Below are positions 6,260 through 27,169 of a stretch of 64,000 bases of DNA, piece after piece; positions within the stretch are counted from its first letter, which is position 1; every line of letters begins with the position of its first letter. The notes under the pieces are model-generated. The model worked only from the letters and a program-made list of their open reading frames with translations. It did no database searches and had not been told where the DNA came from. Source of the stretch: Methanomicrobiales archaeon HGW-Methanomicrobiales-3 (GTDB lineage Archaea; Halobacteriota; Methanomicrobia; Methanomicrobiales; Methanospirillaceae). The stretch spans positions 96,229 through 160,228 of the forward strand of contig PGYK01000003.1 of NCBI GenBank assembly GCA_002839605.1, read 5' to 3'. A program made the translations under genes and the position numbers.

Positions 6260-6915
6260 TCACATCGGATCCAGGTCTCTGACTTTTGGCAGATTTTTCC
6301 CTGAAGCGTTCTTCATCATCCAAAATCGTGCATCCGGTACCCTGATCTCGAACCGCCACCTTGTGCCGCAACCCCGGTCTCCCAAATCATGATACCGGTT
6401 GTTGCGAGGATCTCCCGGATTAAAAAGTGACCAGGGCCGGTATTTTTCCTCTTCCCCAGGAAAAGATATGATCCTTTTCTGAAGCGGAGATACCCCTCCC
6501 GTCATCCCCGTACAGGATAACAAGAACATCCCTGTTCTTCTGCACCGACATGGTCACCTTCGTGATATGCCCCCCGTGCCGCAGAGTGTTAAAAAAGAGG
6601 TTGCAGAAGACTTTAAGGAGCAGGGGATCGGAAAAGATCTCAACCTCCTCAAGATTCTCAATCCTAATAATGCGGGCGTCTACCGACAGGAGGTTTACGG
6701 CTTTCCTTATGAGAGGGGCAACCGGCTGCCAGCAGGCTTGCGGGACCCCGATCTTTTCGAAGTCCCCGGTGAGCCGGATCTGCTCCCACATCTTGTCATG
6801 GAGGACGTGCTGTTTCGGATATATTCGATGATGGCGGGATCATCCGTTTGTTCTCATTCCAGCTTGGCGTAACCGGATAATGCGGCAACCTTGTTGAGGA
6901 GGTCGGCAGGTTTGC
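6260..6915 (-). pseudogene. Decayed histidine-kinase gene remnant (H-box to HATPase region, several frameshifts and one in-frame stop)
   Basis: Minus-strand pieces in three frames match the order of the intact kinase upstream. They read DLLNKVAALSGYAKLE-TGA(6854-6856)-EQTDDPAIIEYIR / KMWEQIRLTGDFEKIG...NTLRHGGHITKV...ILYGDDGRGIS / GPGHFLIREILATTGIMIWETG / GTRWRFEIRVPDARF. Confidence 0.7.
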
Positions 6916-6947
6916 AGGAGTTTTATTTTGTCATATTCAAATTTTGG

Positions 6948-9900: not shown

Positions 9901-11132
9901 CCGTACTCAACAGAGATCCGGCAGATGTCGGCAAGAAGTGACGGGAGATCCTTTGTCCGGACGATAGCCTGGTTGATCTGGGAGAGGACCGCATAGAGAC
10001 GCCTGGCGGCAAGCACCCGTTTTTCGGCAAGGATCTGCTCCGTGATGTTCCGGATCGAGAGGATGGTGATCGTGCGTCGCTTCTGCGGGTACTCGCTTGA
10101 GAGGACATCGGCCGGAAAGATCGTGCCTTCCCGGGAGCGGTAATACCGGAGGTGCGTCCCGAAAATGCCGTTTGGTGATTCAGCTCCAGACGCCCCGTTT
10201 TCCGCAAGCAGATCCGCATGGTTCATTCCCCGGAACTCTTCAGGAGTGAAACCGAAGAGGTAGCTTGCGGCGCGATTGGCATCCAGGATCTCTTCGGAAT
10301 CCTGGTCCACCACGAGCATTGCGTCGCCGGCAGCCTCAAAGACATTGCGGTACCGCTGTTCGCCTTCTGAGATCTTCTCTTCAGCAGCCCTGACCGACGT
10401 GATATCCGTCATCACGCCATGGATACCGGAAAATTTCCCTTGTACAAAGACCGGCCGGCTTGACGTGCGCACAATCCGGATCTTTCCCGATTCGTCAATG
10501 AGCCGGAACTCGAACGGGTGCAGATCTCCCTTTTCGATCTCTACAAACCGCTCCTTAACGCGGGGGAGGTCGTCGGGGACGATGAAATCAGAAACCGGCC
10601 TCGTGATCACATCGGCCGGCTCGTAGCCGAACTGGCTGATCCGGGGGCTGATATAGGAGATGGTGCCGTTCCGGTCAACAACAAAGAGCACATCATTGAT
10701 CTTCTCGACAAGATCCCGGTATTTCTCCTCGGATTGTAAAAGGGCCATCTCAGCCTGCCTGCGCTGGACGGCCTGACGGATCTTGCTTGCCAGCTCGGCA
10801 TACTGGCTTTTTGGTTCGCCGCCTTTCTGGAGGTAGAAGTCCGCACCGGAGTTGAGGGCTTCGATTGCCACCTCTTCGCGTCCCTTGCCGGTGAAGAGGA
10901 TGAAGGGCACAGCGTTCTTTTCCGATCGGAGGAATTTTAAGAAGGCAAGCCCGTCCATCTCCGGCATCTGGTAATCGGAGATGACCGCATCGAATGCTCT
11001 CGCTGCAAGCATCCCGATTGCTTCCTGTGCCGAGGTGGTGGTGACAACGGAAAAATCGCCGGTGCGTTCAAGATAGACACGGGTGATCTCAAGAAGGGTG
11101 GGCTCATCATCAACATAGAGGATGGATATCAT
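6948..11132 (-). CDS. Hybrid sensor histidine kinase: N-terminal receiver + multiple PAS + GAF + HisKA/HATPase (1394 aa)
   Basis: The REC start is MISILYVDDEPTLLEI...DYQMPEMDG. PAS S-box segments repeat along the protein. The H-box is ITRHDIKNKLTGVMGYLELAK, and the ATPase boxes are ENALKHG, VEDDGVGVP and GFGLFLAREIL. Confidence 0.9.
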   Translation of the reverse strand: MISILYVDDEPTLLEITRVYLERTGDFSVVTTTSAQEAIGMLAARAFDAVISDYQMPEMDGLAFLKFLRSEKNAVPFILFTGKGREEVAIEALNSGADFYLQKGGEPKSQYAELASKIRQAVQRRQAEMALLQSEEKYRDLVEKINDVLFVVDRNGTISYISPRISQFGYEPADVITRPVSDFIVPDDLPRVKERFVEIEKGDLHPFEFRLIDESGKIRIVRTSSRPVFVQGKFSGIHGVMTDITSVRAAEEKISEGEQRYRNVFEAAGDAMLVVDQDSEEILDANRAASYLFGFTPEEFRGMNHADLLAENGASGAESPNGIFGTHLRYYRSREGTIFPADVLSSEYPQKRRTITILSIRNITEQILAEKRVLAARRLYAVLSQINQAIVRTKDLPSLLADICRISVEYGKFRMAWIGLLDHDSLMLRPVAHAGNEDGYLSAREQCGDEEQNHVSPVGTAVREGRYDTSNDIETDPRMEPWRKEAKKRGFGSFAAFPFRLHGEVVGAYVIYASQKDFFTAAEIALLEEIALDISFALDMLDEQARRTKAEKALAGSEEKVQTLAGILEHSSQPFGIGYPDGRFGIVNPALCDLLGYSDGELHQVNWTDLTPPEFAGRESAAIEELVRTGIPQRYEKEYVRKDGSRVPVEMFLHRFPATGEKIEYFYTFVTDITEQKRIKEAIRKERDRAEQYLDMAGVLLAVLDTNGKISLINRRGCEILGYPEEELLGRDWISTCLPEHVQDEVREVLSQVTRGDIAPVEYHENVIRRKDGQERMLAFHNTLLKDDDGWVTGILFSGEDITDRKLTEDALQKSEERFRNLIQNSSDMIRIIDRNGRIAYSSPSTLRICGYDPSEVQGKDPLEYIHPDDRKRVKDALSEVFGNRNFGTPTEYRIRHADGHYIDVEAIATNLPGVVGIDGIVTTARPITERKAAERSLLESEGRYRALFEKSTDAIFVLSSRFLDCNPAAERLFGYSREEIMGLDPVALSPPEQPGGRVSADLAAEYIRAAQTGTPQTFAWTHTTQSGRLFPAEVTLIPAQVQGEERLIAIVHDRTAQDLSEKEFRHLARFPHLNPDPVIGIDSLKNITYANPATRTVLENLGVSPDPAAFIPADYDTLVTGLIAEPDSPLMREVRIGTAHFGETISYDPEEKRVMIFAREVTTWSYEKRALEQANRKLNLLSGITRHDIKNKLTGVMGYLELAKGSTKDPELIEYLSRVEISAAAIRQQIEFTKEYENLGAGSPVWQELAVVLEAVKKTLDPGTVAVENETCGLALYADPMLEKVLYCFVENALKHGETITKIRISGTPVPAGYLLVVEDDGVGVPVDRKEKIFNKNVGKGSGGFGLFLAREILSITGITIAETGEPGAGARFEISIPSGKFRIKCPDSPFLN

Positions 11133-11220
11133 GGCGGATTCCGGGGCTGTTGGGGGGTACTGGTATTTTCTGATCTTTTTTCACCCTTATTTATAGTGAG
11201 CGTTACCAGGCCCGGGTACA

Positions 11221-11595
11221 TCACGAAAGATACCGGGCAATGCCTTCACGGAGTTCTTCGAAAGTGACCGGTTTGTGGAGTACCCCGAGATTTTTGTCAT
11301 TGAGCGCAGCCATCTTCTCCTCGACCTCCGGTGATGCGGTGAAGATGAGTACCGGGATATCGACAATTTTGAGCTCCCCCCGGAGTCGTTCCAAAAACTC
11401 CCAGCCGTTGATGGGCATCATCATGATATCCAGAAGGATAAGGGACGGCCTGGTGCGGCGGACCAGATCGAGGGCATCGATCCCGTTGGTGACCAGCACG
11501 GGTTCATACCCGAGCCGGTGGATCATCAGGTCCATCATCTCGAGGATGGGCTGATCGTCTTCAACAACAAGGATCGTTTCAGGCATTGTTCTCAC
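11221..11595 (-). CDS. Single-domain response regulator (CheY-like receiver)
   Basis: 124 aa. ILVVEDDQPILEMM...LILLDIMMMPINGWEF...IFTAS...KP carries the Asp pocket, the phospho-Asp and the conserved Lys in the usual order. Confidence 0.85.
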   Translation of the reverse strand: MRTMPETILVVEDDQPILEMMDLMIHRLGYEPVLVTNGIDALDLVRRTRPSLILLDIMMMPINGWEFLERLRGELKIVDIPVLIFTASPEVEEKMAALNDKNLGVLHKPVTFEELREGIARYLS

Positions 11596-11797
11596 ATCCG
11601 GAATCTGAAACCGGGCGGGCAGGGAATGGCCGGCATGGTTCCCGAACCGGTGGCCGGACCGGGAGTCGTAGCAACCCGTTACCGCAGTTACCTCGATATA
11701 TACCGCCAGAGTTTAAAAATGTGTTATCTTTGACGGAAACGGGCTCCGTAATAGAAAATTGCCGGGGCGGAAAAAATTGCGCGGGAATGCGAAAGCA

Positions 11798-13138
11798 TCA
11801 GACCGCAAGCGGCGAGAGCTTTGCAACCACCCGCTCCACCTGCTGCACCGCGGTGCCGATGTAGGCATCGGGGGAGAGGAGGATGGCGATATCAGCTTTT
11901 GAGCAGTACCGCACGATCTCGGGGTCGGCTCCCAGCACATCGGCAAGAGGCCGGCCTTCGGCAAGGGCCTGCATGCTCGCCATCCGGATCCGCTCGTGGG
12001 AGTCCTGCCGGCTCATGCCCTTCTTTGTCAGCTCGATCATGACCGACTCGGCCATGTTGATGCCGTGGAGGAAGCCAAGGTTCCTCCGGATTGCGGCACG
12101 GTTGATGACCAGGTTCTCCAGCACCACAGCCATGAGCCGGAGGCAGTGGTCGGTGAGAATCGAGGATTCAGGGAAGAGCACCCGCTCGCAGGAGGAGTTG
12201 GTCAGGTCCCGCTCGTCCCAGAGGGTGTTGTTCTGGAGCGCGGGTTCGACCGCCGAACGGATGATCCGGGCAAGGCCGCAGACCTGCTCTGACTTGATGG
12301 GGTTTCTCTTGTGCGGCATGGTTGAGGAGCCCACCTGTTTTGCCCCAAAGGCTTCCTCGACCTCGCCGATCTCGGTGCGCTGGAGGCTGCGGATCTCAAC
12401 ACCGATCTTGTCAAGCGTGGTTGCGACCCCGGCGCAGAACATGAAGTACTCGGCATACCGGTCGCGGGAGATGACCTGGTTTGAGACGTCCACCGAACTC
12501 ATAGTGAGGAACTCCATCATGGTTGCCTGCACGTCCATTGCCTTTGGCCCGAGGGCCGCCTGTGTCCCGACCGCGCCGGTCATCTGCCCGACCACGACCC
12601 GGGGGCGCATCTGTTCGAGCCGTTCGATGTGCCGGCCAACCTCGCTTGCCCAGATGGCAAACCGGAGGCCGTAGGTTGTGGGGACGCCGTGCTGCCCGTG
12701 GGTCCGGCCGATGCAGACGAGCGCCTTGTTCTCCTCGGCCCGCATCAGCAGGACCGCGAGGAGTTTCCGGAGCTTGGTGTCCAGCAGGTCCAGCGTCTGG
12801 CCGAGCTGGAGACCGGTGGCCGTGTCAAGGATGTCGTTGCTGGTTGCCCCGTAATGCACCCAGCGGCCGGACTCGCCCGTGACTTCCGTGATCGATTTCA
12901 CAATCGCCATCATGTCGTGGCTGATCTCAAGTTCGATCTCTTTTGCCCGTTCGAGCGATGCGTTGTGGGCTTTTTCGCTGATCTCAACTGCTGCTTCTGC
13001 CGGGATCATGCCATGCCGGGCTTCGGCTTTTGCGAGCGCAACCTCCGCGCTGACAATGCAGGAGAACCGGTTCTTCTCGCTCCAGACGGCACGCATCTCC
13101 TTCGTGCCGTAGCGTTCCTCGATGGGGTGGACTGCCAT
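11798..13138 (-). CDS. purB: Adenylosuccinate lyase
   Basis: 446 aa. Contains MAVHPIEERYGTKEMRAVWSE, the fumarate-lyase signature GSSTMPHKRNP, and TSNDILDTA. Confidence 0.9.
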   Translation of the reverse strand: MAVHPIEERYGTKEMRAVWSEKNRFSCIVSAEVALAKAEARHGMIPAEAAVEISEKAHNASLERAKEIELEISHDMMAIVKSITEVTGESGRWVHYGATSNDILDTATGLQLGQTLDLLDTKLRKLLAVLLMRAEENKALVCIGRTHGQHGVPTTYGLRFAIWASEVGRHIERLEQMRPRVVVGQMTGAVGTQAALGPKAMDVQATMMEFLTMSSVDVSNQVISRDRYAEYFMFCAGVATTLDKIGVEIRSLQRTEIGEVEEAFGAKQVGSSTMPHKRNPIKSEQVCGLARIIRSAVEPALQNNTLWDERDLTNSSCERVLFPESSILTDHCLRLMAVVLENLVINRAAIRRNLGFLHGINMAESVMIELTKKGMSRQDSHERIRMASMQALAEGRPLADVLGADPEIVRYCSKADIAILLSPDAYIGTAVQQVERVVAKLSPLAV

Positions 13139-13243
13139 GGGTAGAAATGGGATGTACAGGGATATAAGGGGTGAGGGGGGTGCAAAGCGGAGCCTGATTC
13201 GATCAGATCTCTTTTAAAAAAAGGTGCCTGACAAAAAAACGGG

Positions 13244-16200
13244 GATGAGACTCCGGTTCTTGTGGATGTTTCGCTCGAAGCTCTCGTCACTCGTCAAGCC
13301 CTCGGAAAAGATGGGTTTCAATCCTTGTTCTCTTGGATGAATCGCTCGAAGTAGTCCGGTGCTGAGTTCGTGACTTTGTGACCAAGGTTTCAATCCTTGT
13401 TCTCTTGGATGAATCGCTCGAAGGCGGCCCCATGCTCCTGACCCTCAACGGACGCCAGTTTCAATCCGTGTTCTCTTGGATGAATCGCTCGAAGGCCGGT
13501 GATCCCGGCAGCAGGGAGCGCATAATGGGTTTCAATCCTTGTTCTCTTGGATGAATCGCTCGAAGCCCTCCGGCGCAAAATACAACGTATGTTAAAGCCA
13601 GTTTCAATCCTTGTTCTCTTGGATGAATCGCTCGAAGGCTGTTTTTCTAACATATAGATCATACATACTATAGGTTTCAATCCTTGTTCTCTTGGATGAA
13701 TCGCTCGAAGTGCTGTCGGTGTCCTCGGTTACCTGCCCTTTATCGTTTCAATCCTTGTTCTCTTGGATGAATCGCTCGAAGGCCGGGTGCTAGGATCATT
13801 CGCTGCGGATAAGATGTTTCAATCCTTGTTCTCTTGGATGAATCGCTCGAAGGGTTGGCGCGGAGGCGGAGGAATGATCGACATTTGTTTCAATCCTTGT
13901 TCTCTTGGATGAATCGCTCGAAGCAATGCCATGCGGATGATTACTGCCAGTATAAGTTGTTTCAATCCTTGTTCTCTTGGATGAATCGCTCGAAGTCTTT
14001 GACCGGATCCTTCAGAAACCCGGGCTTGTGTTTCAATCCTTGTTCTCTTGGATGAATCGCTCGAAGCAGAAGATCGAGGAATTGAAAGATGGATGAATGT
14101 ATGTTTCAATCCTTGTTCTCTTGGATGAATCGCTCGAAGAATGCCCAAAGAATCGCCTTAAATGTCATATCGGGGTTTCAATCCTTGTTCTCTTGGATGA
14201 ATCGCTCGAAGCCTATATCGTCAGTCATATCGAGCAGGGGGGCCGGTTTCAATCCTTGTTCTCTTGGATGAATCGCTCGAAGTGCGGGGTCGCACGGGGA
14301 ACTAATCATTATGTATAGTTTCAATCCTTGTTCTCTTGGATGAATCGCTCGAAGTCAAGGGAAGGAACCGCAGCGAGAGAGATAGATGGGTTTCAATCCT
14401 TGTTCTCTTGGATGAATCGCTCGAAGACGTGTCCATGACGGTGCCGTAAAGAGCGTTCTGGTTTCAATCCTTGTTCTCTTGGATGAATCGCTCGAAGCGG
14501 AATGACAGTGCACTTTATTACGGCACCAACCCGGTTTCAATCCTTGTTCTCTTGGATGAATCGCTCGAAGTCTGCCGCCTTGGTAGTAGTCCCCGCCGCT
14601 CATGAGTTTCAATCCTTGTTCTCTTGGATGAATCGCTCGAAGTCAAAAGTCAGCCTGAATGGAGTAAAGCACTATGGGTTTCAATCCTTGTTCTCTTGGA
14701 TGAATCGCTCGAAGGTTAAAGGAGGTAGTTTTGTTTTCTTCATCCTCGGTTTCAATCCTTGTTCTCTTGGATGAATCGCTCGAAGAGGGCATGACCGATG
14801 CGGATCTTGCCCGCGAGCAGGGTTTCAATCCTTGTTCTCTTGGATGAATCGCTCGAAGAAAAAATTGAGGAATTGAAAGAATGACGCAAGGCGTTTCAAT
14901 CCTTGTTCTCTTGGATGAATCGCTCGAAGCAGGGCTGCGTCGTGATAGACAGTCTTACCCTTCTTGAAGTTTCAATCCTTGTTCTCTTGGATGAATCGCT
15001 CGAAGAATGCCACAAGATCCGGGCCAGAATTCCACTATTCTGTTTCAATCCTTGTTCTCTTGGATGAATCGCTCGAAGGCACCCACTGTCGTTGATGTAT
15101 CGGTGAACTGCAGTTTCAATCCTTGTTCTCTTGGATGAATCGCTCGAAGTTGATATCACATTGCATGGAGAGCCGGTACCCTGGTTTCAATCCTTGTTCT
15201 CTTGGATGAATCGCTCGAAGCTCTGGTTTCTGGAGGTTTAGAGATTATGCGTGGTGTGTTTCAATCCTTGTTCTCTTGGATGAATCGCTCGAAGGCGTGC
15301 TCCCCGGGCACGAAAAGGAAACTATCGGGTTTCAATCCTTGTTCTCTTGGATGAATCGCTCGAAGCTGCGCTTCCATGGGATCGTAGGTGTCCGGATCCT
15401 GTTTCAATCCTTGTTCTCTTGGATGAATCGCTCGAAGTCGAGGTTCGCCTCCGGTGGTGCGGAGGGATTCTTGTTTCAATCCTTGTTCTCTTGGATGAAT
15501 CGCTCGAAGATCCACCGATACCACCGACAGGTGATGGTAAGACAGTACGTTTCAATCCTTGTTCTCTTGGATGAATCGCTCGAAGGTAACGACCATCCTA
15601 AACAATGCTCGTTTTAATGCTGTTTCAATCCTTGTTCTCTTGGATGAATCGCTCGAAGCCGTCGCCGCCGGCACCCGCATAAAGACCGGTGAGTTTCAAT
15701 CCTTGTTCTCTTGGATGAATCGCTCGAAGTCACCCAAACACCCCGCTACATCAGAATCAATATTGTTTCAATCCTTGTTCTCTTGGATGAATCGCTCGAA
15801 GCACATTACCACCTCGTGGTATTCCGGTTCGTGGAGTTTCAATCCTTGTTCTCTTGGATGAATCGCTCGAAGACTGCATCGACAATTCATTGGAAGAACC
15901 AAATCGGTTTCAATCCTTGTTCTCTTGGATGAATCGCTCGAAGCATGTCCGGCCGCCCGGCAAGTCCTCACCCATAGGGGGTTTCAATCCTTGTTCTCTT
16001 GGATGAATCGCTCGAAGCGGGATCGCCTTCCCGGACTACGTCAATGCACAGCGAGGTTTCAATCCTTGTTCTCTTGGATGAATCGCTCGAAGATACTTGC
16101 AGGTGTCGCAGGGCGAAATCATTTCATGTTTCAATCCTTGTTCTCTTGGATGAATCGCTCGAAGATCAGATCGGTTGCGGCTGCTGCGCTGGTCATTGGT

Positions 16201-17315
16201 TTCAATCCTTGTTCTCTTGGATGAATCGCTCGAAGCAAGTATCGCAGACGGTTCATCGGTGCGCTCAAATGTTTCAATCCTTGTTCTCTTGGATGAATCG
16301 CTCGAAGCCCCTTACCCCGATTGTAAGCATATCCCTTAATGGTTTCAATCCTTGTTCTCTTGGATGAATCGCTCGAAGCAGATCAAGGATAACGCCCGGG
16401 ACCTCGGCATGAGTTTCAATCCTTGTTCTCTTGGATGAATCGCTCGAAGCGGTATAAAAAACGCCTGTACGATCCATTCAAACGGGTTTCAATCCTTGTT
16501 CTCTTGGATGAATCGCTCGAAGTCCCCACTATCACCTCGTAGTATTCCGGTACGTGGAGTTTCAATCCTTGTTCTCTTGGATGAATCGCTCGAAGATGTT
16601 GGTGATCAAACCCGAATCATCATCCTACCTGTTTCAATCCTTGTTCTCTTGGATGAATCGCTCGAAGACGAACTCGTACAGCGAAGGAACCGAGTAAGAG
16701 AAGTTTCAATCCTTGTTCTCTTGGATGAATCGCTCGAAGATCTGATAGAACCGGAGAGAATAGATATGAATATAGTTTCAATCCTTGTTCTCTTGGATGA
16801 ATCGCTCGAAGATGGTTTCCTTATGCGAGAGGTCCCATGTTTCGTGTTTCAATCCTTGTTCTCTTGGATGAATCGCTCGAAGCATGGTTGGCATTATCCT
16901 CTATGAACATCTTAATGGTTTCAATCCTTGTTCTCTTGGATGAATCGCTCGAAGACCAGATCCCATCATGCAGGATTGGGGCAGGCCAAGTTTCAATCCT
17001 TGTTCTCTTGGATGAATCGCTCGAAGTAGGACAGAGGATAGCCAGACTGCGATGAGGATAGTGTTTCAATCCTTGTTCTCTTGGATGAATCGCTCGAAGG
17101 ATAACGGCAAGGGTGCAGGCTGCGACGGCTTGGTGTTTCAATCCTTGTTCTCTTGGATGAATCGCTCGAAGTCATGGGGCAGATACATCACCCAGGCAGC
17201 AAGGCTGTTTCAATCCTTGTTCTCTTGGATGAATCGCTCGAAGTAAACCATACCACCCATCCTGTGATAGGCTCCTTAGTTTCAATCCTTGTTCTCTTGG
17301 ATGAATCGCTCGAAG
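13244..17315 (-). CRISPR. CRISPR array: 56 intact 37-nt repeats (plus-strand GTTTCAATCCTTGTTCTCTTGGATGAATCGCTCGAAG) plus one degenerate terminal repeat (13244-13280); spacers are 34-39 nt
   Basis: I located every repeat start, from 13315, 13387, 13458 through 17207 and 17279, with a period of 71-76 nt. Read on the minus strand the repeat ends in ATTGAAAC. The A+T-rich leader and the cas genes are at the high-coordinate end. The one mutated repeat (13458-13494, T>G at position 11) and the degenerate repeat are at the low-coordinate trailer end. Confidence 0.97.
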
Positions 17316-17420
17316 TTCGCGAAAATTCGCGTATTTTTCGCTTAATCGCGATTAAAATGCTTAAAATTCCCGCATGAATTTCTTCCTGCGGAATTATGGA
17401 TTCCTATTTAAAGATAAGAA
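17316..17420 (-). promoter_or_regulatory. CRISPR leader (A+T-rich, between the cas4 stop and the first repeat)
   Basis: 105 nt with no ORF, A+T-rich (…TTAAGCATTTTAATCGCGATTAAGCGAAAAATACGCGAATTTTCGCGAA on the minus strand). It directly abuts the newest repeat at 17279-17315. Confidence 0.6.
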
Positions 17421-18014
17421 TCAGGTGCAGATTGTCGCGTAACAACAGTCGATGCACTTATTTTTGTATTTGCCCTTGCTCGGATAAAATCCTTTGTCGA
17501 TGATCTCAAGGATTTCATCAATGATCTCAAGACCCCTCTGAAAATCCTGCTCCGTGAATTCAACAGTCTCGATGTGATGATTACTCCGCGTGAAACAAAT
17601 GAACCCGCGTTTCACATCGCGATGATAATTCTCCCGGATCATGATTGCATGCAGGACAAGCTGGTACTTGTAGGTCTGGAAGATAGTGTCCTTGAATTCG
17701 GCAAACTTATATTCGAACGGCGCTGCGGTCCCGTCATCGAGAAACAGTACTTCATCAACGATCCCTTTAATGTGATTCTGTTTTGATGCGATGAAAACGT
17801 TCATCTCTTTTTTTGTCACTCCCAGTTTCTTCCGCAGATAATCTGGGTTCGTGATCAGTTTCTCTTCATGCACCTCACGCCCTTTCATCACCTTGAATCG
17901 CTTCTCCTGATGCTGAGGTATATCCAGGCAGTGCATGTAATAAATGAAACGGGGACAGAAGAGATACTCCAGCACATCTGAGATCGTGATGATCGTTTCA
18001 GTCTCGTTCGGCAT
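17421..18014 (-). CDS. cas4: CRISPR-associated exonuclease Cas4 (RecB-like, 4-Cys)
   Basis: 197 aa. An N-terminal Cys (YLFCPRFIYY) plus the C-terminal CIDCCYATIC cluster. DEVLFLDDG...EYK is a RecB-nuclease-like motif. Confidence 0.9.
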   Translation of the reverse strand: MPNETETIITISDVLEYLFCPRFIYYMHCLDIPQHQEKRFKVMKGREVHEEKLITNPDYLRKKLGVTKKEMNVFIASKQNHIKGIVDEVLFLDDGTAAPFEYKFAEFKDTIFQTYKYQLVLHAIMIRENYHRDVKRGFICFTRSNHHIETVEFTEQDFQRGLEIIDEILEIIDKGFYPSKGKYKNKCIDCCYATICT

Positions 18015-18016
18015 AA

Positions 18017-18319
18017 TCAGAAGAATTTTGTTAAGAGTTCGTCGCTCACCAGTTTCTTGTCGAAAGCCTGGCCGAGCAGTTTTACTTTCTTAAACGAGGT
18101 GTCATCCATTGGAAACACATACACGGAATCGACTTCCGGATCGATCTCCTGCCCGCATTCCAGCGCCAGTGAATCGCGTTCATTGGAGTTCAGGTTCCCA
18201 AGAAATACGCTCTTCTGAACCCGGTACAGTCCCTTGTTCAGGCAGATCCGGGCCACATGATTCCGTGTTGTCGTTTTTCGAATATCGTAAACCACCCAGA
18301 CCATTGTCATCGTTTTCAC
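18017..18319 (-). CDS. cas2: CRISPR-associated endoribonuclease Cas2
   Basis: 100 aa. VVYDIRKTTTRNHVARICLNKGLYRVQKSVFLG is the typical Cas2 ferredoxin-fold start. It abuts the cas1 stop. Confidence 0.9.
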   Translation of the reverse strand: MKTMTMVWVVYDIRKTTTRNHVARICLNKGLYRVQKSVFLGNLNSNERDSLALECGQEIDPEVDSVYVFPMDDTSFKKVKLLGQAFDKKLVSDELLTKFF

Positions 18320-19288
18320 CTACTTGATCAGTTTGTTTGCGATGGTGTGGCACTCCATCTGGATCGTATTCCGGATCTTCACGTTCCTTCCCCGGTAATC
18401 GATCTCCTTGTCGAGCATCTCGTTGATGGCGCCAATAAGGAAAGCCTTCCCCTCCTTGTTCATGTAGAGGCCGCCGGGAATAGGATCGAAATATTTCTCC
18501 GTGACCTGCCGCTTCATGAAGAGGTTGATTATCGTTTTATCGATGTGAGCCCGGAACAGTTCGATGAGATCGAATACGAATGAACGCTTGTTGTAATTGT
18601 CCGTGTGCAGGAATCCGGCATAGGGATCAAGCCCCGCAATGATGCATGAACGCTCAACCTGTGAGTAGAGGACGCCGTACCCGTAGTTCAGCAGGCAGTT
18701 GAACCCGTCGCGTGCCGGGTCACGGCTCCGGCCTTTGAACTTCCATGCATCGGGCATGGTGCTGTTAATCGCATCGAAATATGCCTGCGAAACCATTCCC
18801 TCAATTCCCATGATCGACCCGCGCTTCTGATCGAGTGTCCCCTTCATATTTTTCAGGGATTCAAGCAGGACTTCCATCCTCGCAATGTACTGTTCCAGCG
18901 TCTCTTTCTGCTCGGGCCGGTTCTTCTTCAGGTCCTTGAGAAGATCGATCTGGCCTTCTATCTTCCGTGAGATCCATTCGCGCGCAAGATAAAATCCGGT
19001 ATCCTCGTTTGCTGCTTCAAGCTGGCGACGGCGGATCAGCGTGGTGCTGCCGAGTTTGGAATGCCACACACGCCCGTACGGGTTGCCGAAGTAATCCAGA
19101 AAAATGATATCGATGTTGTTCTCAACCGCAAATTGGATTGCGTCGGTTGTAATCGTGGCAGATGTAGTGATGAGGATGCTGTCGATCTTGTCTGCGGAAA
19201 CCTCGAAGGTCTTCTCGTCGGTCTTCACGAGAAAACAGTTGTTAGATTTTTTCAGGTAGGAGCCCCGGGTGTTGATGACGAGCTGCAT
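18320..19288 (-). CDS. cas1: CRISPR-associated integrase Cas1
   Basis: ORF 18320-19612, trimmed to ATG 19288 (MQLVINTRGSYLKKSNNCFLV) because the upstream part overlaps cas6 in another frame. Conserved features seen are NCLLNYGYGVLY and GFLH. Confidence 0.9.
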   Translation of the reverse strand: MQLVINTRGSYLKKSNNCFLVKTDEKTFEVSADKIDSILITTSATITTDAIQFAVENNIDIIFLDYFGNPYGRVWHSKLGSTTLIRRRQLEAANEDTGFYLAREWISRKIEGQIDLLKDLKKNRPEQKETLEQYIARMEVLLESLKNMKGTLDQKRGSIMGIEGMVSQAYFDAINSTMPDAWKFKGRSRDPARDGFNCLLNYGYGVLYSQVERSCIIAGLDPYAGFLHTDNYNKRSFVFDLIELFRAHIDKTIINLFMKRQVTEKYFDPIPGGLYMNKEGKAFLIGAINEMLDKEIDYRGRNVKIRNTIQMECHTIANKLIK

Positions 19289-19296
19289 GGACCGCC

Positions 19297-19965
19297 TCAC
19301 TGTGTGTATGTTTTCAGTTGCCGTACCGCCCCGAACCCGCGCGATACTGATTTTCCTATACCAAGCAGATTCGGGATCTGGAAGTTTGCCTGGAATTTCC
19401 CGGTAAATGTCATGACGCTGACATCCTTGAGCCGGTCTTTCCGGAAATGTACCTGCGCATCGCATTTGATCTGGCCCGGCACATCGTAGCCCAGCGATTT
19501 TGACATCGAGATGAGATTGCCGATCAGGATTTTCCGTACGAACTCGTCCCGCTCGGGAGTTCCTTTGAGTGCATAGTATTTCCGGTAATTCTCCTGGTTC
19601 AGCGCGAGCCACGGGGTCACAAACTCGTACGACCGGATCTTCTCTGAGATTCCGAACTCTTCATCTTTCAACGAGATGCCACGTTCGACAATCTGGTACG
19701 TGTCCGTGCCCAGCCGGATTTCCTGGTATTCATCGAAGATCTGTTTGAGAACTTCCGCGCCTTCGTTGATTCCGATCACGGTCGGGACATTATCGATCAT
19801 CTTGTATTGCACGACCGGGTAGCGGTAGATGAACTTGTCCGCGCTGTGCTGGTGAAGCTCCGCGTATTCGTTAAACTTGGTTGCGAAGAATCCGCGAAGC
19901 TGGTGAGCTGAACCGTGAATAGGCCGGGTGGAGCCGAGGGTCAGGGTGAAGGTGTGGAGGATCAT
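19297..19965 (-). CDS. cas6: CRISPR repeat endoribonuclease Cas6
   Basis: 222 aa. The C-terminal glycine-rich loop is LLGIGKSVSRGFGAV. The size and operon context fit Cas6. Confidence 0.8.
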   Translation of the reverse strand: MILHTFTLTLGSTRPIHGSAHQLRGFFATKFNEYAELHQHSADKFIYRYPVVQYKMIDNVPTVIGINEGAEVLKQIFDEYQEIRLGTDTYQIVERGISLKDEEFGISEKIRSYEFVTPWLALNQENYRKYYALKGTPERDEFVRKILIGNLISMSKSLGYDVPGQIKCDAQVHFRKDRLKDVSVMTFTGKFQANFQIPNLLGIGKSVSRGFGAVRQLKTYTQ

Positions 19966-22388
19966 AGGATCACAGTACCCCCATCACACGGTGTGAATCC
20001 TGTTTGAGGATCATACCTGAACTCCAGTTCTTCCTCTGAAATATGACCGATTCCAAGATCCTCCCGGAATAATCTCTGCGCTTTATTTTTAGGAACCGAG
20101 ATGACATAATCGAGAAACTCCCGTTTGATTTTCAAAAACTCATTTTTTCTCTTTGCATAGGGTTTGGATTTTATCTCAACGAACTCTTGCCAGATCTTTT
20201 TGGCATCATCATCGCATTCAATAAAAACATCCAGTTTCGGATAGTCATTCTGGATAAGATGGAATGAATCCTGAAGATCGGAATACTTGAGATAGCGGAT
20301 GAGGTCGAGACATTTTTTAGCGGTGTCATTCGTGTGCAATTCTTCAACAAGCCGGAAGTACTGGTTATTCAATGCAAGAAACTGCTGTTCGCTGATGACA
20401 CTTTTTCCTTCCAGAACAACCCGTGTTTTGTCAAGAAGGAATTGGGAATAAATATAATTGCAGTAGTTCTTCCCATCGGCCTGTAGAGTTACAATTTGCA
20501 CTTCACCACGGGCATCCTGCTGATTGTTACGGTTGCATCGCCCGGCAACCTGGTTGATCGAATCAAGCGGGGCCATGTCACGGTAAACAACATCGACATC
20601 GATATCGACACCTGCTTCAATGAGCTGCGTGCTGACGATTACTTTCCGTTTCTTGGTATGCGAATTGCGGATATTCCTGATTCTCGCCAATCGTTCTTTG
20701 GGAATGATATGAGTGGACAAGAATACGAATTCGGTGTTCGGCTCATTTAAAGAAGATATTAAAGTATAGACCTCTTTGGCAGCGTTTATCGTATTGAGGA
20801 CAATGAGAAAATCTTTCTCCTGTTCGTTATGGATTCTATGCCGAATAGTTTCAATAAATTGTTGAAGGGCACATGGTTCTGGATTGAAGGTAAGATCAAC
20901 ACGGTTGAGTTGGGAAAAGTACGTGTTTTTCTTTAATGCAAGTTCAAAGATTTCACCCGATTTTTCTTCATCAAAGATCAAGGGTTGCGTTGCAGTCACG
21001 AAGATAACTCGTATGTTCAGACATCGGGTGAGTGTTTGAATAACATCGTGGAATAATAGCCAGTATTCATGAGGGATTGACTGGACTTCATCAAGGATGA
21101 CAATTGCATTGGCAAGCGTGTGATATTTCCTTATCGCACGATTCCGGTTTGAAAAGATCGTGTGGAAGAACTGAACGAATGTTGTAATAATGAATTCTGA
21201 ATGCCAACCCTCTATCAGAAGACGGGATGCATCCTCATCATAGTCCTCGTCATCGGTTGAGGTATAGGAAAAATCCGCCAGATGATGGTGTTTGAGTAAA
21301 ATATTCGAAGGGACGGGATCGCCATAGGCAGAGGATAACACCGATGAGATGACATCATAATTCTGGTCGATAATACTCATGAACGGGAGGCAATAGAGAA
21401 TTTGAGGGGATACCCCGGTTTCACGATTAATCCGTTCACGTAATTTCAGAGCAAAGGAGACCGAGGTTAACGTTTTCCCGGTGCCGGTCGGGACATTCAG
21501 AGAAAAAATTTTCTTGTCGAGATCCAGAGTCGGGACACGGGAAATTACTTCATCGTATATTTCATTTCGCAACTGGTTTATAGGAGATGTGGAGCGTGAA
21601 AATCCCTTATTTTCGCGATAGAGATCAACAAGATCTGATCGAAGTGCCTCTTTGTCCCGGTCTGCTGAAATTTCTGCTGCATCCTGTTTATCTCCCGAAA
21701 GCAGGAGGGAATAATAAAACAGTGTAAGTACTTCCATGGAGGGAGCATCCGGGATCTGTTCGAGACGGGGTTTTAATTTGAAAAGTTTACCGTCATTCAC
21801 GATGGAGGAGAGGATTGCATCGGTCTCCAGAAAAAAACCGGTGATGGTTTCTTCAGGAATTAATCCGGCATACACATACTGAAGAGATTGCGTGGAAATG
21901 GATTCGCATTGACGTTTAATGACATCAGTTATTTCTGATTTTCTGATATCCGTGGTCTCATCAAAAAAATTTTTCAGGTCGCCATGATGCCGACGTACCA
22001 GAACATATCCAATAAACGGTAAGAGAGAATCGTTCGCATCAGTTCTGCTTTTGAAAGATTCACGTAAACAGTGGTAGGTGAAAATTGCCGAGATGAGACC
22101 ATGATGAGTCTCTGGTTTCATCTTTAAGGTTGGCCGGTTTTTTTCATCAGAGAAAAGGTAATCCTGGAAGTATTTTGTGGCTTTTCCAAAGTCATGACAT
22201 AATCCCAGGGTTCGGGAAAATACCGACAACAGTTCGTTCGAATAACCCAAGGAGGAAAAATCCGGATTTGCCGAGTTATGGGACACTTCACAATAATCCG
22301 CAACTGCCGTAAGATGATCCCGCAGATTTTTTCCGGGATGGGAAAAAAGATTACATGAAGAGGATTTTGTCATTATTTCCAAGTTCAT
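19962..22388 (-). CDS. cas3: Cas3 nuclease-helicase (HD domain fused to a SF2 helicase)
   Basis: 808 aa. The HD region is HLTAVADYCE...LCHDFGKATKYFQ. The Walker A motif is NVPTGTGKT and the DEAD-like box is LDEVQ. The C-terminal helicase domain contains STQLIEAGVDID. Confidence 0.9.
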   Translation of the reverse strand: MNLEIMTKSSSCNLFSHPGKNLRDHLTAVADYCEVSHNSANPDFSSLGYSNELLSVFSRTLGLCHDFGKATKYFQDYLFSDEKNRPTLKMKPETHHGLISAIFTYHCLRESFKSRTDANDSLLPFIGYVLVRRHHGDLKNFFDETTDIRKSEITDVIKRQCESISTQSLQYVYAGLIPEETITGFFLETDAILSSIVNDGKLFKLKPRLEQIPDAPSMEVLTLFYYSLLLSGDKQDAAEISADRDKEALRSDLVDLYRENKGFSRSTSPINQLRNEIYDEVISRVPTLDLDKKIFSLNVPTGTGKTLTSVSFALKLRERINRETGVSPQILYCLPFMSIIDQNYDVISSVLSSAYGDPVPSNILLKHHHLADFSYTSTDDEDYDEDASRLLIEGWHSEFIITTFVQFFHTIFSNRNRAIRKYHTLANAIVILDEVQSIPHEYWLLFHDVIQTLTRCLNIRVIFVTATQPLIFDEEKSGEIFELALKKNTYFSQLNRVDLTFNPEPCALQQFIETIRHRIHNEQEKDFLIVLNTINAAKEVYTLISSLNEPNTEFVFLSTHIIPKERLARIRNIRNSHTKKRKVIVSTQLIEAGVDIDVDVVYRDMAPLDSINQVAGRCNRNNQQDARGEVQIVTLQADGKNYCNYIYSQFLLDKTRVVLEGKSVISEQQFLALNNQYFRLVEELHTNDTAKKCLDLIRYLKYSDLQDSFHLIQNDYPKLDVFIECDDDAKKIWQEFVEIKSKPYAKRKNEFLKIKREFLDYVISVPKNKAQRLFREDLGIGHISEEELEFRYDPQTGFTPCDGGTVIL

Positions 22389-23055
22389 AAAAATAATTAA
22401 CCCGGGCAGAGATGGGTTTACAGTTCCGCTCGAACATGAACTGCTGATAATCGTTCACCGTCCGGTCTTCAGCCATTTCATTGGGTAATGACTCGGTCAT
22501 ATATTCCATGCCGGATTCGAATTGGATCTGTGATATCTGATCTTTGGGAATGATCGAATCAAGTGAGACGTCGGTTGTTTTCTCAATTTTCTTCAATGGA
22601 TATTCACCAACGTAGCGGAAATTTGCAATATGCTCCGATATTCCCATGCAGGGAGTGTATACGCATTTATGGGCGGAGATCATCTCTCGTGCTGTTGAGT
22701 AGATGTTCGGATCGGAATGCGAGAAATAAATCCGGAATTTTGCATCCTTGAGAAACTCAAATTTGATCCTGGTATGTTGTTTGATGACATTCATCGTTTT
22801 GACAGAATCTGTATCGATCAGGTTCTCAGAGAACCGAACCTTTTTCACAGGATTCATCAACCGGACTGCGAAACTTGCATTTTTCCGTTGAAATTTGGAA
22901 AGGTACGATTCCTTCGAAAATCCGAGAATGGCTCCCATCAATCCGCATAGAGCGGTACGGGGGGGAAGAGAGAAGGTAAGCGGCGAGGTGGTTGTAAAAA
23001 ATTTCCGGAAGTGGGCGTACTCACTCCATACCTCAAACACCAGTACGTTTTCCAT
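22351..23055 (-). CDS. cas5: Cas5 (type I-B)
   Basis: ORF 22351-23088. I prefer ATG 23055 (MENVLVFEVWSEYAHFRKFFTTTSPLTFSLPPRTALCGLMGAILG, the canonical Cas5 N-terminus), which removes the overlap with cas7. 23088 remains a possible start. Confidence 0.85.
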   Translation of the reverse strand: MENVLVFEVWSEYAHFRKFFTTTSPLTFSLPPRTALCGLMGAILGFSKESYLSKFQRKNASFAVRLMNPVKKVRFSENLIDTDSVKTMNVIKQHTRIKFEFLKDAKFRIYFSHSDPNIYSTAREMISAHKCVYTPCMGISEHIANFRYVGEYPLKKIEKTTDVSLDSIIPKDQISQIQFESGMEYMTESLPNEMAEDRTVNDYQQFMFERNCKPISARVNYFYELGNNDKILFM

Positions 23056-23060
23056 GTCGA

Positions 23061-23981
23061 TCAGAAATTGATTTGTTTGGATGGGCACTTTACAGATTTT
23101 AGGGCATCTTCAAGAGTCACGGCTTTTTCCCCAAAGGTGAGACGAAGATGCGGGTCGATGCAATATTCGATATGATCAATCTTTACAGCATTTGCAACAA
23201 ACGCATCGATAAGTGCCGAGATATCCAGAGGAATCTGAGTGATGTCACGGATTTCCTCATCAGACACTTCGGTTTTCCCCTTTTTGATCAGAGCGTCAAG
23301 ATCCCCGATGTGGTAATTCTTTTCTTTATAGGTTACATTAATGAGAAGCCGGGGCATCTGGCCTACCTTGGAGCGGGAGATAAGATTTTTCGTTCCGTTC
23401 CAGAGGCCATCAAGAAGGGAATTTACATCATCGATCGTGAGTGTCGTTGTTTTCGCTGCATTTTCATTGATGATTCCGTAGAATCCGATGAGAGAATAAG
23501 GAAGGACATATTGTTCGGTGAATGTTCCCTGCTTGCTGGTTTTATCTGCTGGCATTACGGTTGTTCCTTTCATAAACGCCATTTTTACACGGTGGAACGA
23601 TCGCCCGATCCGGAACTGGACCGGCCCGGTCATGGTAATAGTCTTTCCTTTAATTGCTGTCGTCGCCCCGAACAAACGGATATCAATACACGATTTCAAA
23701 AGTTCATCCGCATTGGTGATCTTCAGGTCTTTCATCCGGTCTTCCTTGTCCTTCAGATTGCCTTTATCATCCCGTGTACCCCGGATAAAAATCTCCTGAC
23801 CCTTGAAATCATGAAGATAATCTCTTATGGTACGCTTCAACCGAACATCGCTGACAATGTTTTCCATCGTCTCTTCATCGATACGCGGCTTATTCTCATC
23901 TAACGGATCACCGTTTGGATTGATATCCTTCACATCATACAAAAACAATAACTCAACACGGTTAGAAATTACGTCACTCAT
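23061..23981 (-). CDS. cas7: Cas7 backbone subunit (type I-B, Csh2/DevR-like)
   Basis: ORF 23061-24029, trimmed to ATG 23981 (MSDVISNRVELLFLYDVKDINPNGDPLDENKPR). The NPNGDP motif is characteristic of this Cas7 family. Confidence 0.85.
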   Translation of the reverse strand: MSDVISNRVELLFLYDVKDINPNGDPLDENKPRIDEETMENIVSDVRLKRTIRDYLHDFKGQEIFIRGTRDDKGNLKDKEDRMKDLKITNADELLKSCIDIRLFGATTAIKGKTITMTGPVQFRIGRSFHRVKMAFMKGTTVMPADKTSKQGTFTEQYVLPYSLIGFYGIINENAAKTTTLTIDDVNSLLDGLWNGTKNLISRSKVGQMPRLLINVTYKEKNYHIGDLDALIKKGKTEVSDEEIRDITQIPLDISALIDAFVANAVKIDHIEYCIDPHLRLTFGEKAVTLEDALKSVKCPSKQINF

Positions 23982-23982
23982 C

Positions 23983-25869
23983 TTACTCTCCTCCAATATC
24001 CTGTTTTTCAAATGCAAACTGATCGACAAGGTTCATGCCAAGCACGAAATAAAATGCGATTTCATCCTTCGATAATCTCCATTCATTACCTGCCTCTACC
24101 ATGGAGGTGGAAATCAACCGTTCAAGATCGCGGTAATAATTCGCCTTGTACTCTTCAAGCTTGTTCTGGATTTCCGGTAACAGCGACTGGATCCGGTTTT
24201 GATCCAATTTGAGCCCCTGGAGTTTTGTCCTGAAGGGTGTTGCCTTCCGCTCTCGGTACTGGATATTCAGGAGTTTCTGGCAAAGCACCCCTTCAAGGAA
24301 CACGGCACGTTTCGCCGGAATATTGAAGAATGCCGGAAATTCCTGAAAAATTGCATCAGCTTTTTTACATGTTTCAGATGATGCATCAATGGCTATGCTT
24401 TTTGATTGATGTGTCATAGTAGTTCCATCCTGATAATCCCCTAATAATTTGAGTTCATTTAAATAGCTCATAAGAGCTAACCCCCGAAGGGCACTCTCTT
24501 TTGTAGGAAAATTATGAGCAGCCTTTTTCCGGATTTTTCTCGTGATACCGGATAGAATGAACGGGTAACTGATTCGATTCCCGGAAAAAATTCTGCTTAC
24601 GATGTCAAGGAAATAGGTCTTTTCATCCGTGTCATTTTTTTCCTTGCCAAAGAAATGAAAAATACTTTCAAAAGTATATTCAAATGTGCGTTCACCAGTT
24701 TTTTTATTATCCTTGAAAACCGGCACCTGCAATGATCGTAAAATCGGTTTACTATCCACTACATGTTTTGCATCAAATAATTGTTTCAGACGTGATGGAA
24801 AAATGTCTTCGATATACCGCTCGATTTTAAATTCATTATTATTTTCCTGATAAATCAGGATGTTGCACAGGAATGAATTTTCCTTGTCTGAAAGATGACT
24901 GAGAATTTCTTCTTTTGTGTCACTCAACAAGGTTTGATAGTTGTCATTCAGTTTAATCCGGTTGCCTTCGGTCTGGAAAATTTTTAATGTATCGTAAACT
25001 TCAGTGTTTTCACTAAGAAGGGGTTTGGGAATAACGTAATAATCAAACCCATAAAATTTGAAATGCGAGAAATTATTCAGATATTTTTTTCCGTGTTCTA
25101 ATGCAAGGGCGCAATCAAGACAGACTGGATAATTTTTCCACGCGAGACTTTGATCAAATCCCCCGGAGACCATCCCGGGTTTATCAACGGTGTAGAAATT
25201 GTAGGTTGAAACAAACCCGTACACTTCATCTTTTCTTTCTCTGCAAACCGAGCAAACCATTTTCTCCCCGAGGGAGGTTGTATTGTATTTTTGTGAGAGA
25301 GACGCATGAGTTTTTTTGATGAATATCCTCCGGAAAAGATCAATGTCTCCCAAGTAATTACGCTGATTCTTCTCAAGAATTACGATTGTTACAAGAGCTG
25401 ATTCTTTTTTTGTCCGGATACTTGGGAGCAAAGTCTCTATTTGATCTTTGATCTCTGATTCATTTGCCACAAGACAATCATTCAATGATTGGATCTCTCG
25501 TAGATCCTTTTCTTCCAATGAATACGGTAATACGGAGAAATCCTGTCCGAACCAGTTTTTTATTTTATTTGGATAGGTTTTGTTGATATCCGTAACCATC
25601 GCGGTTGGCGTAACATTTGATCCTCTCGGACTACCAAACCGATAGAGATATCGTGAATTCCGTTCTTTTGAATATTCTTCCTCACTTACCCGGATGAAAG
25701 AGATCTGGTTGCCATTTTTTTCTAAATCGATTGTGAGAATGTGTGGTGGTTTTGGAGATCGACCCTGAATATCTTCGCAAAATATTTCGATGAGCCCTTG
25801 AGGATCTCCAGTGTCGATCTGATCTTTTCGAAGTGAGTATTCCCCAATTTCCCGTATCGCTTCAATCAT
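23983..25869 (-). CDS. cas8b: Cas8b large subunit (type I-B, TM1802/Csh1-like)
   Basis: 628 aa and first gene of the operon. Contains Cys pairs CSVCRERKDEVYG and CLDCALALEHG. The position and size fit the I-B large subunit. The family assignment is by recognition only. Confidence 0.75.
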   Translation of the reverse strand: MIEAIREIGEYSLRKDQIDTGDPQGLIEIFCEDIQGRSPKPPHILTIDLEKNGNQISFIRVSEEEYSKERNSRYLYRFGSPRGSNVTPTAMVTDINKTYPNKIKNWFGQDFSVLPYSLEEKDLREIQSLNDCLVANESEIKDQIETLLPSIRTKKESALVTIVILEKNQRNYLGDIDLFRRIFIKKTHASLSQKYNTTSLGEKMVCSVCRERKDEVYGFVSTYNFYTVDKPGMVSGGFDQSLAWKNYPVCLDCALALEHGKKYLNNFSHFKFYGFDYYVIPKPLLSENTEVYDTLKIFQTEGNRIKLNDNYQTLLSDTKEEILSHLSDKENSFLCNILIYQENNNEFKIERYIEDIFPSRLKQLFDAKHVVDSKPILRSLQVPVFKDNKKTGERTFEYTFESIFHFFGKEKNDTDEKTYFLDIVSRIFSGNRISYPFILSGITRKIRKKAAHNFPTKESALRGLALMSYLNELKLLGDYQDGTTMTHQSKSIAIDASSETCKKADAIFQEFPAFFNIPAKRAVFLEGVLCQKLLNIQYRERKATPFRTKLQGLKLDQNRIQSLLPEIQNKLEEYKANYYRDLERLISTSMVEAGNEWRLSKDEIAFYFVLGMNLVDQFAFEKQDIGGE

Positions 25870-26926: not shown

Positions 26927-27169
26927 ATGGAAGTAGTTACCCTCTCCTCCAAGGGCCAGATCGTCATCCCCGCAAAAGTCCGGAAAAAACTCTCGCTCAA
27001 AGAAGGCGACTCGCTCGTGCTTGTTGAGGAGAACGATGCGATCCGGCTCCAGCCGCTCGTCAACCTTTCAGAACTCTGGGGCGTTGACACGATCAAAGAT
27101 TCCAGAACGGTTCTCAAAGAGTTGCGAAAGGAATGGGACGATTCGCTTGACGAAAAGACTGCTCTTTGA
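26927..27169 (+). CDS. vapB: AbrB/SpoVT-type antitoxin (VapB-like)
   Basis: 80 aa. LSSKGQIVIPAKVRKKLSLKEGDSLVLVEENDAIRLQP is the SpoVT/AbrB looped-hinge-helix signature. It overlaps the downstream PIN gene. Confidence 0.8.
   Translation: MEVVTLSSKGQIVIPAKVRKKLSLKEGDSLVLVEENDAIRLQPLVNLSELWGVDTIKDSRTVLKELRKEWDDSLDEKTAL

Follow-up and report, generated by a model that had tools for sequence, protein, structure and literature searches.

Two spacers in a methanogen CRISPR array point to separate acquisitions at one PAM-anchored site in a putative replication initiator gene

In the type I-C system of Legionella pneumophila, as set out in the part of the report cited here, two spacer pairs in one CRISPR array target overlapping LME-1 regions; the newer spacer matches perfectly, the older one has a mismatch in the seed or the protospacer-adjacent motif (PAM); priming was suggested (Rao et al., 2016; PMC5071653). 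Two type I-B systems are also relevant. In Haloarcula hispanica, spacer 13, which partially matches a halovirus, primes adaptation; according to the cited passages, mismatches and non-canonical PAMs are compatible with priming, TTG is accepted as a PAM and the seed extends from +1 to +10 (PMC4066796). In Pyrococcus furiosus, Cas4 defines the PAM and spacer size, uptake takes place near the origin of a rolling-circle plasmid, and priming works despite seed mismatches, again as far as the passages cited describe (PMC7293040). Here we consider the CRISPR array and type I-B cas operon in a 64-kb window (the whole stretch of DNA analysed, 64,000 nucleotides of contig PGYK01000003.1) of the archaeon HGW-Methanomicrobiales-3. 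Two of its spacers, numbers 35 and 45, very probably represent two separate PAM-anchored acquisitions from diverged variants of an orthologous 34-36-bp site in a replication gene, rep.

Aligned without gaps and with their right ends flush, spacers 35 and 45 agree at 29 of 34 positions and at 24 of the final 26. Counted from the common end, the differences are at positions 7, 18, 27, 30 and 33. The first-pass annotation of this DNA had given the coordinates and sequences of both spacers, these identities, the flush end and the mismatches at 7 and 18 in the last 26 positions, all of which are exact. Among the 1485 spacer pairs of the array, compared on both strands, the next best match is 24/34 (spacers 11 and 22) and no other pair exceeds 18; shuffling all spacers 30 times gave best matches of 18-21. 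Chance therefore falls far short of the similarity between spacers 35 and 45. Because four of the five differences keep to a three-base phase, the plus strand was read as codons (H-Y-H-L-V-V-F-R-F/Y-V-D), and the target was then sought with a codon-degenerate pattern. In this reading the four are codon third positions; the fifth, at CRISPR RNA (crRNA) position 7, is TTC to TAC, a change from Phe to Tyr.

Which of the two spacers is the newer? The array, the single one of the window, consists of 56 copies of a 37-nt repeat (13315-17315) and 55 spacers of 34-39 nt. The repeat copies are identical in 55 of the 56 cases. The exception, third from the low-coordinate end, has one substitution (1 in 2072 nt), and both it and a degenerate repeat lie at the array end opposite the leader. 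The reverse complement of the repeat has ATTGAAAC as its terminal letters, which we take to be the usual 8-nt 5' handle. Next to the cas genes is an AT-rich stretch with a TTTAAATA box on its minus strand, to which we would assign a promoter role. The degenerate repeat at the far end, this AT-rich stretch with its box and the repeat end together place the leader on the right, on the cas side, and transcription on the minus strand. Spacer 45, ten spacers closer to the leader, is therefore newer than spacer 35. A crude scan of the organism's own assembly found no further CRISPR array elsewhere, and an Rfam search of the window gave no match.

To judge from profile matches, the system is a complete type I-B. 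The signature large subunit Cas8b (Csh1/TM1802) is present with Cas7 (Csh2) and Cas5b, the combination by which type I-B is recognized, and there are a Cas3 with HD nuclease and helicase, a Cas6b (Cas6b_N and Cas6b_C), the adaptation module Cas1-Cas2-Cas4 and the adjoining array. Scores include 192 bits for TIGR02591 (cutoff 104), 298 bits for TIGR02590 (cutoff 172) and 150 bits for TIGR02592 (cutoff 97); PF09484 is matched in the operon with an E value of 8e-153. The type I system assumed earlier is thereby borne out as type I-B.

The codon-degenerate pattern has three matches in metagenome contigs. These contigs, L005, L006 and L007 (1902, 2125 and 3786 nt, respectively), all come from the same metagenome. 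The CRISPR repeat is absent from all three. The site sits within an open reading frame of 379/380 amino acids that matches PF23343, REP_ORF2-G2P ('Replication-associated protein ORF2/G2P'), with an E value of 2.3e-9 and 37.8 bits (curated cutoff 27.8). The replication proteins (Reps) of L008 and of contig C6 of the organism's own genome match the same profile. When the reading frame was aligned with 74 homologues, the HUH histidines H149 and H151 proved invariant (75/75), as did Y208 and Y212 within N-Y-L-M-K-Y; N160 is conserved in at least 90%. The two-tyrosine motif presumably resembles that of phiX174 protein A. Profile and conserved residues mark the target as a rolling-circle replication initiator whose putative metal-binding HUH motif, P-H-Y-H-L-V-V-F-R-[F/Y]-V-D, is covered by the protospacer.

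Spacer 45 matches L006 (1180-1215) at 34 of 36 positions, L007 at 31 and L005 at 30. Spacer 35 matches L006 at 30 of 34 positions, with mismatches at 7, 18, 30 and 33, and L005 and L007 at 26 each. Read in crRNA sense, the three bases 5' of the protospacer are TTG in L006 and TTA in the other two contigs. All differences among spacer 45 and the three contigs are at codon third positions; spacer 35 alone adds a second-position change, the TTC versus TAC at position 7. The proposal that the same site was sampled twice from two variants thus stands, with both spacers on one orthologous rep site and not on unrelated or paralogous loci.

Other searches were negative. The 26-nt pattern, exact or in its two variants, had 0 matches in viral contigs. 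The codon-degenerate pattern had 0 in viral contigs, 0 in genome contigs and, with up to two mismatches, 0 in 200 other genomes of the host family. In the organism's own genome, a search with up to three mismatches found only the two spacers themselves, so there is no self-target. Spacer 45 gave chance-level matches only against phages and plasmids (E >= 0.3); the entire array gave none against phages, and against plasmids just a repeat-like match in a Runella plasmid. A comparison of all spacers with L008-L047 (40 loci, 244 kb) gave nothing significant except a 17/18 stretch of spacer 45 at a homologous rep site. Spacer 25 has a 15-nt exact match inside rep and less than 68% over the full spacer, and is left as unproven.

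Independent evidence on the PAM came from a search of the whole array against 228 host-family genomes. On a contig from the same genus, G207:C21, there are perfect protospacers for spacers 3 (34/34), 24 (36/36) and 43 (34/34), each flanked by TTG, and spacer 2 matches at 29/34 with flank TGG. The region that they target is a prophage of the head-tailed kind, in which terminase, portal, Mu-F-like, capsid and tape-measure genes are present. The tally of flanks over distinct sites is four TTG, one TTC (spacer 44) and two TGG or GGG (spacers 2 and 51). TTG, from four independent sites, is the dominant PAM. The flank of the pair's target in L006 is the motif found at 3/3 perfect protospacers of other spacers. 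Where spacers 35 and 45 end flush is therefore the 5' end of the crRNA, next to the PAM, as the first-pass annotation had supposed. Its view that length varies at the distal end agrees with the data too: the difference between 34 and 36 nt is confined to the PAM-distal end, where the two extra bases of spacer 45 match the target. In rep, the PAM is complementary to the AA of an Asn codon (at least 90% conserved) and to the third base of the Asp codon before it (the residue is D in 59 of 75 Reps). The TT of the PAM is fixed by protein constraint on the Asn codon, and therefore the same anchored site is present in diverged variants.

How far apart were the two sources? L006 and L007, which come from the same metagenome, are identical at 29 of 34 positions of the site and 84.9% identical over 1293 nt. 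The divergence of spacers 35 and 45 (15%) equals that between these two lineages. Contigs of four sequencing runs, taken from Logan (where rare variants are invisible), were placed on L006, and many rep variants of 80-99% identity coexist in each run. The numbers placed at >=99%, 95-99%, 90-95% and <90% identity are 16, 6, 20 and 24 in run X1 (66 contigs), 28, 19, 26 and 27 in X2 (100), 30, 39, 62 and 49 in X4 (180), and 2, 2, 3 and 7 in X6 (14). Among the 40 differences listed out of 462, T>C at L006 place 1183 reproduces the spacer 45 state. Because the distance between the spacers is that between co-occurring lineages and many variants are present per run, the two spacers appear to derive from separate lineages of a diverse family rather than from an invader and a newly escaped mutant of it.

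Two more spacers, 44 and 51, match L006. Spacer 51 also matches L005 at 33/35 and L007 at 30/35 (flank TGG). All four spacers are on the same strand as the rep site and within 1.7 kb; L006 is 2.1 kb long. Identity to L006 rises with array order, from 30/34 through 32/36 and 34/36 to 35/35 for spacers 35, 44, 45 and 51, a monotonic trend that, with four points, is only suggestive. Spacer 51 matches L006 at 35/35, yet the flank is GGG, and the spacer itself starts with TTG. The non-TTG flank could be a PAM escape of the element or a slipped acquisition.

These observations are best explained by the following scheme. The source elements would be two members of one family of circular rolling-circle elements of ~15 kb, ~15% apart at the site. 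The 5'-TTG PAM sets the common boundary of the spacers, leaving only the PAM-distal end to vary. Spacer 35 was acquired first; against a later L006-like lineage, the seed mismatch at position 7 would probably have cost it interference. Protection from that lineage would then have been restored by the adjacent spacers 44 and 45 and, later, by spacer 51. These later acquisitions might have been primed by spacer 35 through its imperfect match; otherwise a local hot spot, or the retention of spacers against a conserved site, might account for the second sampling of the site.

Is priming by spacer 35 credible? TTN sites number ~2400 in a 15-kb element. Even if only 1700 sites are assumed, P for a coincidence among four random picks is ~0.35%, and it is lower with 2400. 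Something therefore favours the site, be it priming, a hot spot near the origin or retention against a constrained site. Priming presupposes a spacer that already matches in part, and spacer 35, at 30/34 to L006 with the seed mismatch at position 7, is such a spacer. Since type I-B priming tolerates mismatches and non-canonical PAMs in H. hispanica and P. furiosus, it is mechanistically plausible that spacers 44, 45 and 51 were primed in this way; we put the idea forward tentatively.

The alternative that survives best is that the two acquisitions were unrelated and naive, with no priming, the site being a hot spot at rep and the origin (through Rep nicking and single-stranded intermediates) or spacers against the HUH site being kept longer. 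In P. furiosus, target-independent uptake yields a peak of protospacers across a rolling-circle plasmid's double-strand origin, as described in the cited part of PMC7293040. A conserved stem-loop that is a candidate origin lies ~600 nt from the present site, all four matching spacers fall within 1.7 kb around it, and the site encodes invariant catalytic residues. This clustering, however, is biased by the short contigs. A hot spot a kilobase or so wide would still hold ~260 TTN sites in 2.1 kb, so that a repeat among four picks from 250 has P ~2.4%, and in DNA conservation the site does not stand out from the gene as a whole (85% in either case). We regard two naive acquisitions as a serious but rather doubtful explanation.

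Less likely again is escape followed by re-acquisition within one evolving lineage, in which the position-7 seed base mutated under CRISPR pressure and the host re-sampled the mutated site. This was the reading offered by the first-pass annotation, which had rightly placed position 7 in the seed (in type I-B, +1 to +10 in the cited passages of PMC4066796). Position 7 is the sole non-synonymous difference, at a residue for which the family shows great variety (E, D, Y, N, I or R) and where an escape would be tolerated. The other mismatches of spacer 35 to L006 are at 18, 30 and 33, of which 18 and 30 are every-sixth positions, taken to be unpaired. The newer spacer fits L006 better (34/36 against 30/34). 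The same reasoning was proposed for the Legionella pairs, in the portion of PMC5071653 cited. Against this stand four further synonymous differences, giving 15% in all, the distance between co-occurring lineages, when a fresh escape mutant is expected to differ at one or two bases. Ten spacers separate the two acquisitions; no intermediate or Phe-codon variant was recovered among the three contigs and 75 proteins. The annotation's 'one invader' is doubtful in view of this divergence and of four out of five differences being synonymous; the escape that it proposed, for which the non-synonymous seed mismatch speaks, is less likely than co-circulating lineages, which account for the data at least as well. 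As to its question whether natural variants carry the two substitutions, the newer states at positions 7 and 18 are both present in L006.

Duplication of one repeat-spacer unit within the array, followed by drift, can be discarded: the units are only ten spacers apart and duplicated spacers do occur in arrays, but 55/56 repeats are identical (one substitution in the repeats, against 5/34 in the spacers), the differences track the codon phase of the target gene, and the states of spacer 45 and its two extra bases exist in natural target DNA, on contigs devoid of the repeat.

Several observations weigh against the account of two PAM-anchored acquisitions with renewal of immunity. The position-7 state of spacer 35 (Phe codon) was found in none of the three contigs and 75 Rep proteins, and its exact source was not found; the base could be a mutation of the spacer itself. 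Not all flanks are TTG (GGG or TGG for spacer 51, TGG for spacer 2). The evidence for priming is thin, with only three distinct sites, all on one strand; by the quadrant pattern of P. furiosus, the favoured quadrant holds spacer 51 but not spacer 44. The target contigs measure 1.9-3.8 kb, and clustering near rep is partly forced by the way in which they were found. The assembly (18 contigs) may be a population consensus, so the co-occurrence of the spacers in a single cell is an assumption.

The reading frame of rep raises a further question. With the PAM on the Asp-Asn codons, codon third positions fall at crRNA positions 3, 6, 9 and so on, and half of these are every-sixth positions. Cascade leaves every-sixth positions unpaired in type I-E structures. 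With wobble bases at multiples of three, half of the synonymous variation would therefore fall on positions that Cascade does not pair. Might the HUH site be an 'escape-constrained' protospacer on which acquisition repeatedly converges, the PAM and most seed bases being locked by the constraint on the catalytic site? We consider this improbable. Were it true, one spacer would cross-react with, and prime on, many diverged lineages of the element family, and re-sampling would follow each time a lineage moved out of range.

What is the targeted element? L007 shares the order of several genes with two IMG/VR contigs (15,298 and 15,150 nt), whose Rep is 38% identical. Both have 123-nt terminal direct repeats, which indicate that they are complete circles. 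They were retrieved with an alignment query; a single-protein search with Rep had found no relative in viral contigs. Genes of one of the two code for a collagen-repeat protein that contains a Peptidase_S74 domain, a protein with a PKD domain and a C5 methylase; there is also a weak match to an AAA domain. For the ~15-kb element, either a virus or a plasmid is conceivable. More distant relatives of Rep, at 29-33% identity, occur in metagenome-assembled genomes titled Methanoregula, Methanoregulaceae or Methanomicrobiales. Of 227 other genomes in the host family, 29 have Rep relatives; 22 of these are among the 107 genomes of the same genus. The ThrRS encoded in the window shares 91-92% identity with the ThrRS of two records titled Methanoregula sp.

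In the organism's own assembly, chromosomal contig C6 ends with a related rep (430 amino acids, PF23343) that has a tyrosine integrase next to it (L047 255-3755). This looks like an integrated relative of the targeted elements. Its homologous site is identical to spacer 45 at ~19 of 36 positions by hand count, and no spacer of the array matches this rep. Contig C6 was considered as a plasmid (14.3 kb, lower GC) and rejected as such: it has housekeeping genes, with rep and integrase at the end. Upstream of rep is an element of ~76 nt that is conserved far above the Rep proteins (L047 1394-1469, L006 551-626, L007 1394-1469, L009 5469-5544). It consists of a GC-rich stem-loop, with three pairs showing compensatory changes among the four sequences, and then a stretch that does not vary. 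Candidate roles are those of a double-strand origin and of a regulatory RNA; a tRNA was tested for and rejected.

Other features of the array and its surroundings can be noted (Table 1). Spacers 11 and 22 form a second related pair, with ungapped identity but PAM-proximal ends that are not flush. Both read as a gene end, ...K-I-E-E-L-K-(D-G or E)-stop, and differ by synonymous changes and one extra codon. Their source, sought in viral contigs, gave 0 matches, and a 16/17 match to L005, in an unrelated reading context, was treated as chance. The prophage on G207:C21 occupies ~6575-15028 of the stretch L078 (G207:C21:12000-31999); the spacers that match it range from old to recent, and provide a CRISPR-based link between hosts of one genus and a head-tailed virus. 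Just past the cas operon is a PIN-domain (VapC-like) gene. A hybrid sensor kinase of 1394 amino acids, with a receiver, GAF, multiple PAS domains and a histidine kinase core, is encoded elsewhere in the window.

Table 1. Positions of the array, its leader, the cas operon, individual spacers and neighbouring genes in the 64-kb window
Feature	Position	Strand	Remarks
Hybrid sensor kinase gene	6948-11132	minus	
CRISPR array	13244..17315	minus	56 repeats, degenerate terminal repeat and 55 spacers; transcribed right to left
Degenerate terminal repeat	~13244-13280		low-coordinate end of array
Spacers 2 and 3	13424..13528	minus	target prophage on G207:C21
Spacer 11	14067-14102		related to spacer 22
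Spacer 22	14859-14892		related to spacer 11
Spacer 24	15006-15041		targets G207:C21 prophage, 36/36, TTG
Spacer 35	15802..15835	minus	older, 34 nt; rep HUH-motif codons; reads H-Y-H-L-V-V-F-R-F-V
Spacer 43	16379-16412		targets G207:C21 prophage, 34/34, TTG
Spacer 44	16450..16485	minus	adjoins spacer 45; L006 97-132, 32/36, flank TTC; ~1.05 kb from rep site
Spacer 45	16523..16558	minus	newer, 36 nt; same rep site; reads (P)-H-Y-H-L-V-V-F-R-Y-V
Spacer 51	16955..16989	minus	newest of the four; L006 1720-1754, 35/35, flank GGG; rep 3' part
Leader, AT-rich, 105 nt	17316..17420	minus	between cas4 and first repeat; carries TTTAAATA box
Type I-B cas operon	17421..25869	minus	rightwards from leader: cas4, cas2, cas1, cas6b, cas3, cas5b, cas7/csh2, cas8b/csh1
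PIN-domain (VapC-like) gene	27021-27542		

The spacer pair is a natural record of CRISPR memory updated at exactly the same PAM-anchored site, in a methanogen lineage of uncultivated type that is without virus-host genetics. It links a largely uncharacterised family of ~15-kb circular elements (74 Rep homologues, two complete IMG/VR genomes) to Methanoregula hosts, and the four independent sites give the PAM of the system as TTG. A search of the open-access literature found no paper on the element family or on such spacer targets in Methanoregula. Are spacers against catalytically constrained, PAM-locked sites favoured? The rep site offers a case where this can be tested.

How does the locus compare with the described systems? 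With P. furiosus it shares the type I-B system and a rolling-circle replicon sampled near its origin; the PAM there is NGG, and a natural pair of spacers to the same site is not described in the cited passages of PMC7293040. H. hispanica has the same subtype and likewise an old spacer that imperfectly matches a relative of its original target. Priming was demonstrated there by experiment, whereas here it is deduced from the array; the canonical acquisition PAM there is TTC, whereas TTG dominates here; and the passages of PMC4066796 cited do not report re-acquisition of the priming site. The likeness to the LME-1 pairs of Legionella, as far as the cited part of PMC5071653 describes them, is the closest: the targets are the same or overlap, the newer spacer fits extant DNA better and the older one carries a seed mismatch. 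The present case differs in being an archaeal type I-B system, in its exactly common PAM-anchored boundary, in the 15%, mostly synonymous, divergence of its sources, in having the HUH catalytic motif of rep as target, and in a newer spacer that is itself imperfect (34/36). The pattern of memory updating has thus already been described in Legionella, and the spacer pair reported here is a well-resolved archaeal example of it, not a new principle.

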